DNA of 13,620 nt from a virus. Taxonomy: Duplodnaviria; Heunggongvirae; Uroviricota; Caudoviricetes. Below, in pieces: positions 1,368-9,785 of this stretch. The translations under genes were made by a program, and so were the position numbers. Positions within the stretch are counted from its first letter, which is position 1. Each line of letters starts with the position of its first letter. The stretch lies in IMG/VR virus record IMGVR_UViG_2565956608_000003, one strand, 5' to 3'. The notes beneath the pieces were generated by a model. That model worked only from the letters and a program-made list of their open reading frames with translations. It was not told the origin of the DNA and made no database searches.

Positions 1368-1850
1368 ATGTCTGGACCCCCGAAAACCCCGCCACGCCTG
1401 CATTTGATACGAGGCAACCCCTCAAAGCGGCCAGTTAAAGACCTCAAAAAAACCGCTAAAAAGGATGAAAAAGGTCTCCCTAAAATTCCGCAACATTTAG
1501 GGGCGCAGGGGAAGTACTGGTTCAGGCGAATGGCGGAAGAGCTGAATGCGGAAGGGATCATTTCTCAGCTTGATGCGCGTGCGCTTGAGCTACTGGTGGA
1601 AGCCTATACCGAATACCGGCATCACTGCGAAACACTCGATGTTGAGGGGTACACCTACCGCTCGGAAACGCAGAACGGTGATGTGCTGATTAAGGCACAC
1701 CCAGCTGCTGCGATGAAAGCGGATGCCTGGAAGCGGATCCGGGCGATGCTTGCAGAATTTGGTATGTCACCGGCAAGCCGGGCAAAAGTAAATACCGCCG
1801 GACCGGATAATGTTGATCCGCTGGCAGAGCTTTTAAAAGCGAGAGACTGA
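1368..1850 (+). CDS. Terminase small subunit (P27-like family)
   Basis: 160-aa ORF immediately upstream of and overlapping (TGATG) the large terminase gene; basic N-terminus (PKTPPRLHLIRGNPSKRP) and overall look recall the P27-family small terminase. Confidence 0.8.
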   Translation: MSGPPKTPPRLHLIRGNPSKRPVKDLKKTAKKDEKGLPKIPQHLGAQGKYWFRRMAEELNAEGIISQLDARALELLVEAYTEYRHHCETLDVEGYTYRSETQNGDVLIKAHPAAAMKADAWKRIRAMLAEFGMSPASRAKVNTAGPDNVDPLAELLKARD

Positions 1851-3607
1851 TGGCAAAAGTGGCTGACGGGATCCGCTACGCCGAACGTGTTGTTGCAGGA
1901 GAAATTGTTGCTGGCGAATTTGTCCGCCTGGCCTGCCAGCGTTTTCTTGATGATCTGAAGTACGGCGAAAAGCGGGGGATTTATTTCAGTGAACCCCGTG
2001 CGCAGCACATCCTGAATTTCTACAAATTTGTGCCTCATGTAAAAGGGGCACTGGCAGGCCAGCCCATTGAGTTGATGGACTGGCATGTATTTATCCTCAT
2101 TAATATTTTTGGTTTTGTCATTCCGCTGGTCAATGAAGAAACCGGGGAAGTTGTCATGCGCAGCGATGGCAGCGGACGTCCGGTGATGGTGCGCCGGTTC
2201 CGGACGGCGTACAACGAAGTCGCCCGTAAAAACGCAAAATCAACCCTGTCATCGGGTATCGGCCTGTATATGACGGGGGCAGATAGTGAAGGCGGAGCTG
2301 AGGTGTATTCAGCCGCAACCACGCGTGACCAGGCCAGAATCGTGTTTGAAGACGCCAAAAATATGGTCAGAAAAGCCCGGTCGACACTCGGGCGGTTGTT
2401 TGATTTCAACAAGCTGGCGATTTACCAGGAGCAGAGCGCATCAAAATTTGAACCGCTTTCCTCGGATGCAAACAACCTGGACGGTCTGAACATCCACTGC
2501 GCCATTATTGATGAGCTGCATGCACATAAAACCCGCGACGTGTGGGACGTTCTGGAGACGGCAACCGGTGCCCGTCTGCAGTCTCTGTTATTTGGCATCA
2601 CCACGGCTGGCTTTAACAAGGAAGGGATTTGTTACGAGCAGCGTGATTACGCCATCAAGGTATTGCGAGGCTATAACAGCGACGTGGAGGGCGCGGTAAA
2701 AGACGACTCCTACTTTGCGATCATTTACACGCTCGATGAGGGAGATGATCCGTTTGATGAAACGGTCTGGCAGAAAGCGAATCCTGGCCTGGGCATCTGT
2801 AAACGCTGGGATGATCTGCGTCGTCTGGCGAAAAAAGCGAAGGAGCAGGTCTCTGCGCGGGTGAATTTTTTTACCAAACACATGAATGTGTGGGTCACTG
2901 CCGAATCTGCCTGGATGGATATGATTAAGTGGGAGAAGTGCGAATACATTGCTCCACAACATGAGCTGAAAACATATCCCATGTGGGTCGGCGTCGACCT
3001 TGCTCATAAGATTGATATCTGTGCGGCGGCAAAACTCTGGCGAACCGATAACGGACATGTTCATGCTGATTTTAAATTCTGGCTTCCGGAAGGACGGCTG
3101 GAACGATGCTCGCGGCAGCAGGCAGAACTTTACCGGAAGTGGGCGGAGATGGATAAGCTCATCCTGACGGATGGTGATGTTATCGATCATGCTCAGATAA
3201 AAAGTGACTTACTGGAATGGATTGGCGGTGAAAACCTCAGGGAACTGGGATTTGACCCGTGGAGCGCAATGCAGTTCAGCCTGGCACTGGCTGAAGAAGG
3301 GATACCGCTGGTGGAGGTTCCGCAGACGGTCCGCAATCTGTCAGAGGCCATGAAGGAAACGGAATCACTGGTTTATGCCGGGCGTTTCCATCACAGCAAT
3401 CATCCGGTCATGAACTGGATGATGTCTAACGTTACTGTAAAACCGGACAAAAACGACAACATCTTCCCGAATAAATCCACGCCGGAAGCCAAAATCGACG
3501 GCCCTGTTGCGCTTTTTACAGCCATGAGCCGCTTTCTGGTAAATGGCGGGGGCGTGAATGACTTTCTGTCCACGCTTGATCCTGATGAGGACTTGTTAAT
3601 TCTGTGA
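1850..3607 (+). CDS. Terminase large subunit
   Basis: 585-aa ORF; Walker B-like HCAIIDELH; possible deviant Walker A around ARKNAKST; C-terminal nuclease-like region (WVGVDLAHKIDICAAA); position between small terminase and portal. Confidence 0.9.
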   Translation: MAKVADGIRYAERVVAGEIVAGEFVRLACQRFLDDLKYGEKRGIYFSEPRAQHILNFYKFVPHVKGALAGQPIELMDWHVFILINIFGFVIPLVNEETGEVVMRSDGSGRPVMVRRFRTAYNEVARKNAKSTLSSGIGLYMTGADSEGGAEVYSAATTRDQARIVFEDAKNMVRKARSTLGRLFDFNKLAIYQEQSASKFEPLSSDANNLDGLNIHCAIIDELHAHKTRDVWDVLETATGARLQSLLFGITTAGFNKEGICYEQRDYAIKVLRGYNSDVEGAVKDDSYFAIIYTLDEGDDPFDETVWQKANPGLGICKRWDDLRRLAKKAKEQVSARVNFFTKHMNVWVTAESAWMDMIKWEKCEYIAPQHELKTYPMWVGVDLAHKIDICAAAKLWRTDNGHVHADFKFWLPEGRLERCSRQQAELYRKWAEMDKLILTDGDVIDHAQIKSDLLEWIGGENLRELGFDPWSAMQFSLALAEEGIPLVEVPQTVRNLSEAMKETESLVYAGRFHHSNHPVMNWMMSNVTVKPDKNDNIFPNKSTPEAKIDGPVALFTAMSRFLVNGGGVNDFLSTLDPDEDLLIL

Positions 3608-3624
3608 AACAGCTTATTACTGAT

Positions 3625-3765
3625 ATGACCGGGCTGATCGGTTTCGGTTTGCTCACTGCTGGCGTTTATCTGTATGCAGGTCTGCCAGCGTCTCTGATGC
3701 TGTCGGGCTGTTTGTTGCTGCTTTATGCACTGGTGGTGTCCATGAGGAGAAAACATGCTTCTTGA
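3625..3765 (+). CDS. Putative small hydrophobic protein (46 aa from ATG 3625; in-frame GTG 3604 would give 53 aa), not in the supplied ORF track
   Basis: My translation: MTGLIGFGLLTAGVYLYAGLPASLMLSGCLLLLYALVVSMRRKHAS, two hydrophobic stretches and a basic C-terminus; fills the otherwise empty TerL-portal gap and overlaps the portal start by 11 nt; no strong SD seen. Confidence 0.35.
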   Translation: MTGLIGFGLLTAGVYLYAGLPASLMLSGCLLLLYALVVSMRRKHAS

Positions 3766-4981
3766 TGCTCTGTTTCGCAGTGAGCCTCTGGAAAATCCCT
3801 CGGTTCCGGTAACCGGAGAGGCCGCTGAGACGGATAATATTTTTGCCCGGGATGTGTATGTCAGTCCGGAAACATCCATGAAGCTGGCTGCTGTCTATGC
3901 CTGTATTTATGTTATTTCATCCAGTGTGGCTCAGATGCCCCTGCATGTGATGCGAAAAACGAATGAGCATGTTCAGCCGGCACGCGATCACCCGTTGTTC
4001 TGGCTCGTTCATGATGAACCTAATGCCTGGCAGACCAGCTATAAGTGGCGGGAACTGAAGCAGCGTCATGTGCTGGGGTGGGGCAATGGTTATACGTGGG
4101 TAAAACGTAATCGTCGTGGCGAGGTTACCAGTCTTGAATGCTGTATGCCATGGGAAACCACGTTACTTAACACCGGAGGGCGTCATACCTACGGTGTGTA
4201 TAACGAAGAGGGTGCATTTGCGGTAAGTCCGGACGACATGATCCATATCAGGGCGCTGGGAAACAATCAGAAAATGGGACTGAGTCCGATCATGCAGCAT
4301 GCTGAAACCATTGGTATGGGAATGAGTGGTCAGCAGTATACCAGTGCTTTTTTTAACGGTAATGCCCGTCCTGCCGGGATTATTTCTGTGAAAAATGAAC
4401 TGAACGAACAGAGTTGGAGCAGGCTCAAGAATATGTGGCAGCGGGCGGTGACAGCGCTTCGCAGTCAGGAAAATAAAACCATGCTGCTGCCTGCGCAACT
4501 GGATTACCGCGCTCTGACAGTTTCTCCGGTGGATGCTCAGATCATTGATATGACCAAGCTGAACCGGTCGATGATTGCCGGGATTTTTAATGTCCCGGCG
4601 CACATGATTAATGACCTGGAAAAAGCCACATTTTCGAATATTACGCAGCAGGCGATTCAGTTTGTTCGCTACACGATGATGCCCTGGGTTGCGAACTGGG
4701 AGCAGGAGCTTAACCGTCGCCTGTTTACCCGTACAGAACGGGCTGCCGGGTATTACGTTCGTTTCAACCTCACGGGGTTGCTCCGTGGGACCCCACAGGA
4801 GCGTGCGCAGTTCTATCACTTTGCCATTACAGATGGCTGGATGAGCCGGAATGAAGCCAGGGCATTTGAGGATATGAACCCGGTTGACGGTCTGGATGAA
4901 ATGCTGGTCAGCGTAAATGCAGCAAATCCGTTGAATAACTTTAAAGATACGAAAGGCAAAGAGGAAAAGAACGATGAATGA
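3755..4981 (+). CDS. Portal protein (HK97-like family)
   Basis: 408-aa ORF after the large terminase; strong SD GAGGAG 3744-3749 five nt before ATG; size and synteny (portal-protease-capsid) typical of HK97-type head modules. Confidence 0.9.
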   Translation: MLLDALFRSEPLENPSVPVTGEAAETDNIFARDVYVSPETSMKLAAVYACIYVISSSVAQMPLHVMRKTNEHVQPARDHPLFWLVHDEPNAWQTSYKWRELKQRHVLGWGNGYTWVKRNRRGEVTSLECCMPWETTLLNTGGRHTYGVYNEEGAFAVSPDDMIHIRALGNNQKMGLSPIMQHAETIGMGMSGQQYTSAFFNGNARPAGIISVKNELNEQSWSRLKNMWQRAVTALRSQENKTMLLPAQLDYRALTVSPVDAQIIDMTKLNRSMIAGIFNVPAHMINDLEKATFSNITQQAIQFVRYTMMPWVANWEQELNRRLFTRTERAAGYYVRFNLTGLLRGTPQERAQFYHFAITDGWMSRNEARAFEDMNPVDGLDEMLVSVNAANPLNNFKDTKGKEEKNDE

Positions 4982-5573
4982 CCGTGAAACGCGCTGTTAC
5001 AGCGGGGAGGTGCGGGCGGAACAATATGATAATGCCCCGACCCACATTCTGGGCTATGGCTCGGTATTTAACAGTCGTTCAGAACCTCTGTGGGGATTTC
5101 GTGAAATCATCAAGCCGGGGGCTTTTGATGATGTACTGAATGATGATGTACGTGGCTTGTTTAATCATGATCCTAATTTCATTCTCGGACGAAGTTCTGC
5201 CGGCACGTTGTCATTGTCGGTGGATGAACGCGGTTTACGTTATGACATTGTTGCACCGGATACTCCGACTATTTGTGACCTGGTGCTGTCTCCAATGTTG
5301 CGTGGTGACATTAATCAGTCCTCGTTCGCGTTTCGTGTCGCCCGTGACGGAGAGAGCTGGTATGAAGACGACGAGGGGATTGTTATCCGGGAAATCACGC
5401 GCATTTCTCGTCTGTATGACGTCAGCCCGGTGACATATCCGGCCTATCAGGACGCAGACTCTGGTGTCCGCTCAATGAAAGCCTGGCAGGAAGCGCGGGC
5501 GAGTGGTGCGCTGAAGAAAGCTGTTAACGAACGAATGGCGCGTGAGCGTCTTTTGACCCTTCTTAATGCATAA
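4974..5573 (+). CDS. Prohead maturation protease (HK97 family)
   Basis: 199-aa ORF overlapping the portal stop by 8 nt (ATGAATGA); sits between portal and major capsid; GAGGA 4961-4965 upstream. Confidence 0.85.
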   Translation: MNDRETRCYSGEVRAEQYDNAPTHILGYGSVFNSRSEPLWGFREIIKPGAFDDVLNDDVRGLFNHDPNFILGRSSAGTLSLSVDERGLRYDIVAPDTPTICDLVLSPMLRGDINQSSFAFRVARDGESWYEDDEGIVIREITRISRLYDVSPVTYPAYQDADSGVRSMKAWQEARASGALKKAVNERMARERLLTLLNA

Positions 5574-5587
5574 GGATACTACTGACG

Positions 5588-6805
5588 ATGAAACTTCATG
5601 AGATGAAGCAAAAACGAAACACCATTGCAAAGGATATGCGTGCACTGCATGAAAAAATTGGTGATAACGCATGGACTGATGAGCAACGGGCAGAGTGGAA
5701 CAGGGCGAAAGCTGAGCTGGATGCGCTGGATGAGCAAATCGCCCGTGAAGAAGAGTTGCGCCGTCAGGATCAGGCATATGTGGATGAGTCCGGGCCGGAA
5801 GAGCGCCAGAATAATGAGGCGGAGAACGGGAAAAAGGCGGTGGAAGAGAAGCGCGCTGCGGCATTTAACCGTTTTCTGCGTGCCGGATTTGCAGAACTGA
5901 ATGCTGAAGAGCGTAATCTGATGCGTGAACTGCGGGCTCAGAGTGTAACAACGGATTCTCAGGGCGGATATACGGTGCCCACGCAGATGCGTAACAAAAT
6001 CATTGACACCATGAAGGCTTATGGCGGGATTGCCAGTGTGGCGCAACTTCTGACCACATCAACCGGGCAGGATATCACCTGGTCAACGTCTGATGGCACG
6101 ACTGAAGAGGGCGAACTGCTGGCGGAAAATACAGCCGCAACGGAACAGGATGTGACGTTCGGGACCGCTATTCTGGGGGCTAAAAAGCTGTCATCAAAAA
6201 TAATTCGTGTGTCCAATGAGCTGCTCCAGGACAGTGGGGTGGATATTGAATCTTATCTGGCAAACCGTATTGCCCAGCGTATTGGTCGTGGAGAGGCAAA
6301 ATATCTGGTTCAGGGGACCGGAACGGGATCACCGTTACAGCCAAAAGGGCTGGCAGCGTCGGTGACGGGAACCATCCAGACTGCAGCCTCTGCCGCTTTC
6401 ACCTGGAAAGAAATGAATGCCCTGAAACATGCCATTGATCCGGCATATCGTGGTGGGCCGAAATACCGCTGGGCATTCAATGATGCCACATTGCAGACTA
6501 TTGAAGAGATGGAGGATGGACAGAAACGCCCGTTATGGCTGCCGGATATTGCAGGCGGTACGCCGGCTACTGTGCTGGGGATCCCTTATGTTATTGATCA
6601 GGCTATTGACGGGATTGGTACCGGAAAAAAATTCATTTTCCTGGGGGATTTCAACCGCTTTATCATTCGCCGCGTTACTTATATGGAACTGAAACGTCTG
6701 GTTGAGCGTTATGCTGAGTTTGATCAGGTGGCATTTCTGGCTTTCCATCGTTTTGACTGTGTGCTGGAAGATGTGGCAGCCATCAAGGCGCTCACTGGCA
6801 AATAA
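5588..6805 (+). CDS. Major capsid protein (HK97 fold) with N-terminal scaffolding delta domain
   Basis: 405-aa ORF; the N-terminal ~100 aa are charged and coiled-coil-like (ELDALDEQIAREEELRRQDQ...), typical of a delta domain, followed by a capsid-like body; directly follows the protease. Confidence 0.9.
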   Translation: MKLHEMKQKRNTIAKDMRALHEKIGDNAWTDEQRAEWNRAKAELDALDEQIAREEELRRQDQAYVDESGPEERQNNEAENGKKAVEEKRAAAFNRFLRAGFAELNAEERNLMRELRAQSVTTDSQGGYTVPTQMRNKIIDTMKAYGGIASVAQLLTTSTGQDITWSTSDGTTEEGELLAENTAATEQDVTFGTAILGAKKLSSKIIRVSNELLQDSGVDIESYLANRIAQRIGRGEAKYLVQGTGTGSPLQPKGLAASVTGTIQTAASAAFTWKEMNALKHAIDPAYRGGPKYRWAFNDATLQTIEEMEDGQKRPLWLPDIAGGTPATVLGIPYVIDQAIDGIGTGKKFIFLGDFNRFIIRRVTYMELKRLVERYAEFDQVAFLAFHRFDCVLEDVAAIKALTGK

Positions 6806-9111: not shown

Positions 9112-9483
9112 ATGACTAAAAATATCCGTAATCTGGCACTGGCAACGATGTCGGGGTTTCGCCATAAAACCGTTGATGTGCCTGAATGGGAGGGAGCAAC
9201 GGTTGTGTTACGGGAACCTTCTGCAGAAGCCTGGTTGCGCTGGCAGGAGATCGTTAAAGCAAAAGATGATGAGACACCGTTATCCGTTGCGGAGCGCGCC
9301 CGCCGAAATCTGGAGGCAGATGTTGAACTGTTCATTGATGTTCTGTGTGATACCGGACTGCAACCCGTATTTTCAGAGGATGATCGTGAACAGGTGATTG
9401 CCGTGTATGGCCCGGTGCATGCGCGGCTTCTTCGGCAGTCTCTGGAACTGATCAGTGATGCCGGCGAGGTTAAAAAAAAGTAG
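9112..9483 (+). CDS. Tail assembly chaperone (lambda gpG analogue)
   Basis: ORF between major tail and tape measure genes; likely start ATG 9112 (GAGGA 9099-9103) rather than 9097; ends ...GEVKKK-TAG directly on an A-rich slippery site. Confidence 0.8.
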   Translation: MTKNIRNLALATMSGFRHKTVDVPEWEGATVVLREPSAEAWLRWQEIVKAKDDETPLSVAERARRNLEADVELFIDVLCDTGLQPVFSEDDREQVIAVYGPVHARLLRQSLELISDAGEVKKK

Positions 9484-9785
9484 CGCTTCCGGGGATGCGT
9501 TTTCTGATGATGCTGGCGCTCAGGATGGGGCGCACATTGTCAGAGTTACGCCGGGAAATGTCCGCATCAGAAATCATGATGTGGGCAGAATTTGACAGGT
9601 TCAGCCCGCTGGGTGACGAGCGGGCTGATATCCGGGCTGCCCAGATTGTTTCAGCTGTTTACGGTGCGCAGGGGGTCAAAGTGCCACTGAATGATGCGCT
9701 TCTTCAGTGGGAGCAGGAGCAGACAGAAGGCGTCTCAGATCCATTTGCCGGACTGGAAAACGCGCTTTTAATAGTGTCTCAGTGA
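9112..9785 (+). CDS. Tail assembly chaperone frameshift fusion (lambda gpGT analogue), by -1 slip at 9474-9480
   Basis: The -1 frame is closed by TAA at 9471-9473 and opens exactly at the heptamer A-AAA-AAG, then runs stop-free to 9785; ATG 9495 has no SD, arguing against independent initiation. Confidence 0.7.
9474..9480 (+). other. Slippery heptamer A-AAA-AAG (programmed -1 frameshift site)
   Basis: Read directly from the sequence; zero-frame stop TAG follows at 9481-9483. Confidence 0.7.

Follow-up and report, generated by a model that had tools for sequence, protein, structure and literature searches.

A 53-residue putative membrane hairpin encoded between the large terminase and portal genes of an HK97-like cos prophage

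Genes for small membrane proteins are known from the interval (hereafter the slot) between the gene for the large terminase subunit (TerL) and the portal gene of several tailed phages. Those of the family phrog_502 are found in phiP27, ST64B, SfI/SfII/SfIV, phi467 and many Escherichia coli and Salmonella prophages. In phiP27, ST64B, SfI and SfII they go under the names "putative integral membrane protein" or "membrane protein", and the first of these names is given to the slot gene in the GenBank records of phiP27, SfII and 118970_sal3. A second family, phrog_7105, is unnamed and has neither a Pfam model nor an experimental characterisation. In phage T4, which is a more distant system, the gp20 portal dodecamer assembles on the inner membrane with the phage protein gp40 and the host protein YidC (PMC4493910). 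The present analysis concerns a 13,620-nucleotide (nt) stretch of DNA, the IMG/VR virus record IMGVR_UViG_2565956608_000003 (Caudoviricetes), which is referred to at its full length as the window. The late operon of an HK97-like cos siphophage or prophage makes up the window, in the gene order HNH, TerS, TerL, small open reading frame (ORF), portal, protease and capsid. The small ORF (3604..3765, + strand; 53 amino acids (aa) plus a stop codon; (M)KQLITDMTGLIGFGLLTAGVYLYAGLPASLMLSGCLLLLYALVVSMRRKHAS) is almost certainly a real late gene of this HK97-like cos prophage, encoding a 53-aa helical hairpin that belongs to phrog_7105.

A sequence-only reading had placed this ORF in a 147-bp interval between the TerL and portal genes, with its stop codon inside the portal start, and these coordinates are all correct. 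The interval (3608..3754, 147 bp) lies between the TerL gene (1850..3607, + strand; TerL_ATPase plus TerL_nuclease) and the portal gene (3755..4981, + strand; PF04860, E 1.9e-100). It is not a real gap, being occupied by a gene whose two ends overlap the neighbouring genes. The GTG start codon of the small ORF lies on the TGA stop codon of TerL in a GTGA overlap (3604..3607, + strand), which is ATGA in the relatives. The TGA stop codon of the small ORF (3763-3765) lies 11 nt into the portal gene, which starts at ATG 3755, and the same 11-nt overlap (3755..3765, + strand) is found in SfV-type relatives. The same reading had called the ORF untracked, which proved to be an effect of a size cut-off only, as the coding sequence is annotated in GenBank phages and in bacterial genomes. 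The exact sequence is already a "hypothetical protein" in GenBank phage records (e.g., URC08916.1 in ON470583), and PGAP gives the same name in about 630 complete E. coli genomes. The ST131 strains EC958 and JJ2434 are among these, as is MS8345, in which the match is 100%. In the RefSeq and GenBank records of SfV (NC_003444.1, 2289-2450), the 53-aa gene is unannotated and the portal start is set 48 nt 5′ of the homologous GTG, in a frame that overlaps the small ORF. Full-text literature searches did not find a functional study of the small gene, and the matches were generic statements on holins or unrelated. The gene and its family are therefore already known in public annotation with their function uncharacterised; the gene lies in the most conserved and best-studied part of tailed-phage genomes, yet has no known function. 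Added here are the structure of the portal-side cassette, profile evidence that links phrog_7105 to phrog_502, and the translational architecture of the locus.

An open frame of 53 codons arises by chance with a probability of about 0.08 per frame, (61/64)^53, and is weak evidence for a gene when taken alone. The window protein matches the phrog_7105 hidden Markov model (HMM) with an E of 9.4e-20 and 71.2 bits, residues 1-52 aligning to profile positions 1-52 of 52, and carries the complete D7/G13/G20/G26/G35 signature at the family length of about 50 aa. Homologues of 52-53 aa with the same 4-nt TerL overlap and 11-nt portal overlap are encoded by Shigella phage SfV, Morganella phage IME1369_02, Edwardsiella phage EPP-1, Klebsiella phage vB_VIPKPNMC05 and E. 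coli phage 733R5. The high-GC Ralstonia phage YO140_1 has a homologue at the same position, in which the spacing is slightly different and the peptide is conserved. A profile search of a word-indexed protein collection returned 107 clusters at 90% identity, none of them named, from Enterobacterales, Ralstonia, Hamiltonella and Arsenophonus. When 1.84 billion representatives were searched exhaustively with hmmsearch, 286 clusters at 50% identity were obtained (E<=1e-3), nearly all of which are 45-60 aa long and align end to end, at identities down to about 30%.

All 80 related IMG/VR loci keep the ORF intact, with a product of 53 aa in 77, 49 aa in two and 52 aa in one, and the order TerL, small ORF, portal, with the small ORF overlapping a PF04860 portal gene, is likewise found in 80/80. 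Frameshifts or stops in close relatives with intact flanking genes had been named as the observation that would count against the ORF, and none was seen: all 43 unique nucleotide sequences of the relatives keep the frame open, while each of the other five frames is stopped in 32-43 of the 43. Summed entropy over these 43 sequences is 31.2, 16.5 and 58.4 at codon positions one, two and three, respectively (variability 3>1>2). The pairwise Nei-Gojobori ratio of nonsynonymous to synonymous substitution (dN/dS) is 0.14-0.82, with a median of about 0.35 and synonymous sites near saturation, compared with 0.05-0.10 for the portal gene and 0.11-0.29 for the C-terminal 200 codons of TerL. The suggested conservation and synonymous-substitution analysis thus yielded a picture of purifying selection. 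In E. coli, length variants are rare (P0004-P0012, each with 1-3 members) and diverge at differing internal points; they may be copies that were cut short or disrupted, perhaps in degraded prophages or at the ends of contigs.

With regard to the start codon, the sequence-only reading gave a product of 46 aa, or 53 aa from GTG 3604, the shorter form being the one read from ATG 3625. The predicted product is the 53-aa GTG form and not the 46-aa form. GTG is regarded as the true start because residues 2-7 are conserved and all 80 related loci have an ATG at the homologous position. Within residues 2-7 (K-x-L-I-x-D), K2, the hydrophobic positions 4 and 5, and D7 are kept, D7 being invariant in the close family, and M8 (codon ATG 3625) is found in the window type only. 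The small ORF has no Shine-Dalgarno (SD)-like motif of its own in 43/44 unique sequences, all 43 of which have the ATGA overlap. The window type is the sole exception, with GAGGA at 3587-3591, 12 nt 5′ of the start and within the codons of the acidic TerL tail. As the ATGA/GTGA overlap usually comes without an SD motif, the small ORF appears to be translated by termination-reinitiation coupled to TerL. The portal SD motif GAGGAG (3744..3749, + strand; 5 nt before ATG 3755) lies in codons M47-R48-R49 of the small ORF. All 44 unique sequences have AGG-GGG or AGG-AGA at the portal-SD position, the window having AGG AGA (3745-3750). The conservation of R48 (AGG) is confounded because its codon also serves the portal SD and is under dual constraint.

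The Kyte-Doolittle hydropathy of the 53-aa product is high at residues 8-25 and 31-47, and its grand average of hydropathy (GRAVY) is 0.99. The two hydrophobic stretches and the basic tail RRKHAS of the sequence-only reading are therefore present. An AlphaFold2 (AF2) model, computed from a 111-sequence family alignment, is a two-helix hairpin with helices at residues 2-25 and 27-52 and a mean predicted local distance difference test (pLDDT) score of 91.1. Transmembrane (TM) helix 1 (codons 8-25; 3625..3678, + strand) contains the near-invariant G13 and G20 and a Y22-L23 motif, and is modelled with pLDDT >90. It is followed by a tight, essentially uncharged turn (GLPAS, codons 26-30; 3679..3693, + strand), which is predicted to be periplasmic. 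TM helix 2 (codons 31-47; 3694..3744, + strand) contains L31 (85%) and G35 (100%), and leads into the basic C-tail RRKHAS (codons 48-53; 3745..3762, + strand), which is predicted to be cytoplasmic. Conservation among 111 diverse members is 85% for D7, 97% for G13, 99% for G20, 95% for G26 and 100% for G35, and L23, L31 and an aromatic residue at position 22 are conserved as well. The pattern is one of putative helix-packing glycines plus a single juxtamembrane acidic residue. In the same members, the mean number of K+R per sequence is 1.98 in the C-tail, 0.24 in the turn and 1.0 in the N-tail, and 96% of family members have at least one K/R in the C-tail. By the positive-inside rule, this distribution would place both termini in the cytoplasm and the 5-residue turn in the periplasm. 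The product is thus quite probably an inner-membrane protein of N-in/C-in topology with a 5-residue periplasmic turn, in which G13, G20 and G35 pack the helices together. The earlier description as a small two-pass membrane protein is backed by conservation, purifying selection, the hairpin model and the charge distribution, and the suggested TM prediction, made from hydropathy and the AF2 model, gives a putative two-helix hairpin. A Pfam scan of the window protein returned no family at E<=1, and a sequence-profile search of the PDB returned only noise at E>0.2 (light-harvesting and ND3 helices). A Foldseek search against BFVD returned only uncharacterised hairpins at E>=0.28 and is uninformative for a hairpin of 53 aa. 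No PADLOC family matched the window protein or its phi467 counterpart at E<=1.

The flanks of the gene show it to be co-inherited with the portal. Portal identity to the window is 54-89% across the 80 IMG/VR loci (76-89% in 79), and TerL falls into two classes of about 35% and 72-88% identity. The reverse case is provided by phi467 and about 300 E. coli genomes, which share HNH, TerS and TerL with the window at 94-99% nt identity up to about position 3530. From about 3557 onward, the identity between the window and phi467 falls to about 45-50%, so that a sharp mosaic joint with P27-type prophages lies at about 3530-3557, roughly 50-75 nt 5′ of the TerL stop codon (L002 2730-2808; L003-L096). 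Beyond the joint, phi467 has a different two-TM protein, of 60 aa (phrog_502, E 7e-27), and a portal that is 28% identical. The last 15 TerL codons of the window (DFLSTLDPDEDLLIL; 3560..3604, + strand) form an acidic tail that is inherited with the small ORF and portal. A tail of the form DFLS(S/T)LDPD(D/E)(D/E)LL(I/L)L ends both TerL backbones when an SfV-type small ORF and portal come next, whereas the window-type TerL backbone of phi467 ends in ...EPEPDLSEHLVSVGIRSL instead. The last ~15 TerL residues hence track the type of portal and not the backbone, the two backbones being about 35% identical. As the TerL backbones swap while the tail, small ORF and portal stay together, these three are taken as one co-inherited cassette, with the gene on the portal side. 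This block is a clean module-boundary marker in mosaic prophages. The C-terminus of lambda gpA is a prohead-binding specificity element; it is therefore plausible, by analogy, that the TerL tail acts as a portal-docking element that is exchanged with the head module. Seven distant family members were sampled by exact-sequence lookup, six of which have a readable context, the contig of P0211 being too short to show it. In five of the six, the gene lies upstream of, and overlaps, a PF04860 portal gene: P0195, P0139, P0166 and P0243 have the order TerL, small gene, portal, and P0155 is directly 5′ of the portal gene (4-nt overlap) with no TerL before it.

The sequence-only reading had considered a membrane peptide inside a packaging module unexpected, an expectation that does not agree with the wider occurrence of such genes. 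A survey of the slot in 18 sampled phage lineages with PF04860-type portals revealed a two-TM small gene in six, namely the window/SfV, Ralstonia, P27/phi467, Vibrio K265, Clostridium phiCT19406C and Parageobacillus NIIg3.2 lineages, and the P27-type counterpart is labelled as an integral membrane protein. Other cargo occupies the slot in three lineages, being Phd/Doc in Javan575 and soluble small ORFs in Javan426 and SpongeBob. TerL abuts the portal gene, with no gene annotated between them, in eight: HK106, Caulobacter phage TMCBR4, Moraxella phage Mcat30, Pseudomonas phage BR52a, Klebsiella phage ST16-OXA48phi5.3, Bacillus phage Booya, a Paenibacillus phage and Vibrio phage 11E33.1. In Javan102, the portal gene is preceded by a gene for a MerR-family regulator and not by TerL. 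The two-TM gene is invariably present within the SfV-type and P27-type portal clades and absent from HK97-type and several other relatives. The Vibrio K265 slot protein is a clear homologue with 39 bits against the family HMM, and the Ralstonia, Vibrio K265 and metagenomic members also match phrog_7105. As a separate observation, the cargo of Streptococcus phage Javan575 is a Phd/Doc toxin-antitoxin pair between TerL and portal (L097 129-754).

The window protein shows no sequence difference from phrog_7105 and resembles phrog_502 in its location in the TerL-portal slot, its two-TM hairpin, its conserved glycines and its polar or basic tail, and phrog_502 genes also pair with window-type TerL backbones. 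The phrog_502 protein differs in being 60 aa long, with a YPPAG turn and a WSW motif, and its partner portal is 28% identical to that of the window. Its gene starts in the intergenic region, with a spacing of its own, and lacks the ATGA coupling. An hhalign comparison of the phrog_7105-type family with phrog_502 gave a probability of 93.9% and an E of 1.6e-7 over 49 columns. The phi467 protein scores 19.0 bits against the family HMM, a value reached by 0/2000 shuffles, which peak at 10.9 bits; whole-sequence shuffles and profile methods are lenient for TM composition. The PHROG cross-matches are reciprocal, the window protein matching phrog_502 at E 1.3e-6, secondary to phrog_7105, and BLASTP gave no alignment between the window protein and the phi467 slot protein. 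From these profile comparisons, phrog_7105 and phrog_502 appear to be remote homologues, and the window protein is better regarded as a remote relative of phrog_502 than as a member.

The slot proteins of Clostridium phiCT19406C and Parageobacillus NIIg3.2 are 68-72 aa long and, as in the window slot, end in a two-TM hairpin. The PHROG families of these small proteins of Firmicute phages are phrog_1142 and phrog_26072, and the Pfam family is DUF1056 (PF06341). The Clostridium protein matches phrog_1142 at E 2.6e-7, and its DUF1056 match (E 0.094, 13.4 bits) lies below the gathering threshold of 22.2 bits. One distant member of the window-protein family grazes phrog_1142 (E 0.034), and the window protein has no DUF1056 match at E<=1. 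Against the family HMM, the scores of the two Firmicute proteins are not significant, at only 5.6 and 1.7 bits (shuffle p values of about 0.01 and 0.05); they are therefore treated as positional analogues, and the DUF1056 link is unproven. A tblastn search with the Clostridium slot protein found only itself. The placing of a DUF1056-type gene between terminase and portal in Lactococcus phage r1t is not borne out, as the gene order of r1t differs.

Regarding the function of the gene, a tentative proposal is that its product is an accessory protein that assists portal or prohead assembly, or packaging; it would be made late, in translational coupling, and act at the inner membrane. Ribosomes that terminate on TerL would reinitiate at GTGA, so that synthesis of the hairpin would keep pace with that of TerL and directly precede that of the portal, whose SD motif and start codon lie in the last codons of the small ORF. 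By inserting co-translationally, the hairpin would then bring the ribosome, the late mRNA and the nascent portal to the inner membrane. The hairpin could tether the early prohead or the packaging complex there, and its short cytoplasmic ends might bind the portal or the TerL tail. In this respect, the hairpin may be likened to T4 gp40, a small phage-encoded membrane-associated factor that is tied to portal function (PMC4493910). T4 differs from the window phage in being a distant myovirus with scaffold-based assembly, and the likeness is purely functional. The gene for gp40 is not adjacent to gene 20 in the manner of the window. A more specific version, which is doubtful at present, is that HK97-like cos siphophages of the SfV and P27 types start their heads, or dock packaging, at the inner membrane through a hairpin of about 50 aa that is co-adapted with the portal and TerL tail. 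If this were true, it would mean a gp40-like step in a group of phages whose heads are thought to be assembled free in the cytoplasm, and would supply a function for a family of several hundred clusters in common E. coli, Shigella, Salmonella and Klebsiella prophages. Any assisting role at the membrane, be it in portal or prohead assembly or in packaging, would change the textbook view of HK97-type head assembly, with relevance to phage engineering and prophage induction.

As the best overall explanation, the account that runs from gene to assembly role is held with confidence about evenly divided, and several observations weigh against its functional part. Only about 7 residues at each end would be exposed to the cytoplasm, and little conservation is seen among them except at D7 and in the basic tail; the confounding of R48 by the portal SD applies within that tail. 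Conservation is concentrated within the membrane part. The gene is absent from many phages of the same portal family, including HK106/HK97 and the other lineages in which TerL abuts the portal gene, and since HK97-type relatives lack it, the hairpin is not essential to the portal family in general. Any gene located between a co-adapted TerL tail and portal would be co-inherited by linkage alone. The remaining distant member with readable context, P0170 (78 aa, 52 bits; L108 3001-3237), is a clear member of the family with no portal gene in the 5.4 kb seen. It follows primase (Zn_Ribbon_Prim) and AAA_25 genes, and precedes a 99-aa ORF and a Phage_capsid gene on a metagenome contig, so that it lies next to replication and capsid genes; this locus may be a satellite-like or rearranged element. 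In addition, PHROGs puts the sister family phrog_502 in the category "moron, auxiliary metabolic gene and host takeover".

That category also speaks for the main rival explanation, in which the product is a membrane protein directed at the host (acting, for example, in superinfection exclusion, host takeover or membrane physiology) whose gene became trapped between the TerL tail and the portal. This explanation is about as tentative as the assembly role, and much of the above can be read in its favour: the TerL-portal junction takes unrelated cargo, as in Javan575 (Phd/Doc) and in Javan426 and SpongeBob (soluble ORFs), the gene is dispensable in many related phages, and conservation lies inside the membrane rather than in the cytoplasmic tails. 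HK97 gp15, an exclusion membrane protein within the late operon, provides a precedent. The autonomous transcription unit and atypical base composition of a moron in the sense of Hendrix and Juhala are nevertheless missing from the window ORF, which has no promoter or terminator of its own, a GC content of 0.49 against 0.48-0.53 in the flanks, and overlaps with both neighbours. Late-only expression by reinitiation would come too late for exclusion and would provide no protein in the lysogen. Moreover, the slot and the portal overlap are kept as portal identity drops from 88% to 28%, as well as in P0155, which has no TerL upstream, and PADLOC gave no match. If the product were host-directed after all, the locus would indicate that a cargo gene can become fixed in the terminase-portal interface. 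The hydrophobic hairpin also invites comparison with class II holins and pinholins such as S21 of phage 21, which are likewise small, late proteins with two TM helices, a predicted N-in/C-in topology and a short basic C-terminus. A lysis-related hairpin (class II holin-like, pinholin-like or antiholin) would link packaging to the timing of lysis, and the conserved glycines are typical of helix-packing membrane oligomers. Such a role is improbable, as the lysis cassette lies elsewhere, 5′ of HNH, and the ORF is not beside an endolysin gene. There is no conserved dual-start motif, M8 being confined to the window type, and the sole holin match in Pfam scans of family members, Phage_holin_3_6 at E 6.3, is noise.

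The remaining explanations place the product in the virion or deny it a role of its own. A virion-associated or ejection peptide near the portal, aiding the passage of DNA across the inner membrane at the next infection, would agree with the tight linkage to portal and head genes and with a hydrophobicity suited to membrane insertion on ejection. The chance of this is slim, because two strongly hydrophobic helices would be inserted co-translationally into the membrane of the producing cell, because the known membrane-crossing component of siphophages is the tape-measure protein, and because the literature searches yielded no report of such a peptide. The lambda protein gpW is encoded between the large terminase gene A and the portal gene B and is similar in size, and the label "head-tail joining protein W" has been given to phrog_502-type genes in ON470580, ON470603, ON470584 and PQ793804. 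This label looks like a carry-over by position from lambda W. In contrast to gpW, a soluble connector protein, the window protein consists almost entirely of two TM helices in a hydrophobic hairpin and matches no Pfam gpW or connector family at E<=1. The operon already has Ad1, Hc1, Neck1 and a tail terminator downstream, and a gpW-like head-tail joining (head completion) role is accordingly extremely unlikely. Equally hard to credit is the alternative raised by the sequence-only reading, that the interval is a regulatory spacer with a fortuitous ORF, or the related idea of a translational coupler whose peptide is irrelevant. The ORF holds the portal SD and start codon, is itself putatively reinitiation-coupled to TerL, and has the roughly 8% chance per frame of arising at its length. 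This alternative is effectively refuted by the conservation of the peptide across 286 clusters, the near-invariant glycines and aspartate, the 3>1>2 variability, dN/dS values below 1 and the conserved Ralstonia peptide. No promoter-like or terminator-like site was found on the + strand in 3300-4000, and an Rfam scan of 3400-3950 gave no match.

The rest of the window is organised as follows. An Rz-like i-spanin gene (phrog_13; 98-403) contains the nested gene for the Rz1 o-spanin (159-359), which is read in the +1 frame inside Rz and has the lipobox VVGC. Since Rz/Rz1 are located here, the lysis cassette is upstream of the packaging genes, its holin and endolysin genes being beyond the window ends, and in phi467 a "lysis protein" gene also precedes HNH. 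Two small ORFs of unknown function (427-666, phrog_2571, partial; 663-851, phrog_10235) lie between the spanin genes and the HNH endonuclease gene (870-1220), which is followed by TerS (1368-1850; Terminase_4). On the other side of the portal gene are the genes for the protease (4974-5573) and major capsid protein (5588-6805). The Ad1 adaptor, Hc1 head closure, Neck1 and tail terminator genes lie 3′ of the capsid gene, and further late genes encode the major tail protein, chaperone and tape measure. An antisense ORF of 159 aa (3400..3879, minus strand), considered as a real feature, is spurious, as 42-43 of 43 relatives have stops in the reverse frames. At its 3′ end, the tail assembly chaperone gene reads ...GTT AAA AAA AAG TAG (9469-9483), in which the eight-A run at 9472-9479 holds the slippery sequence A AAA AAG, and an ORF in the -1 frame (9495-9785) runs on to 9785; this is predicted to be the usual G/GT programmed-frameshift arrangement.

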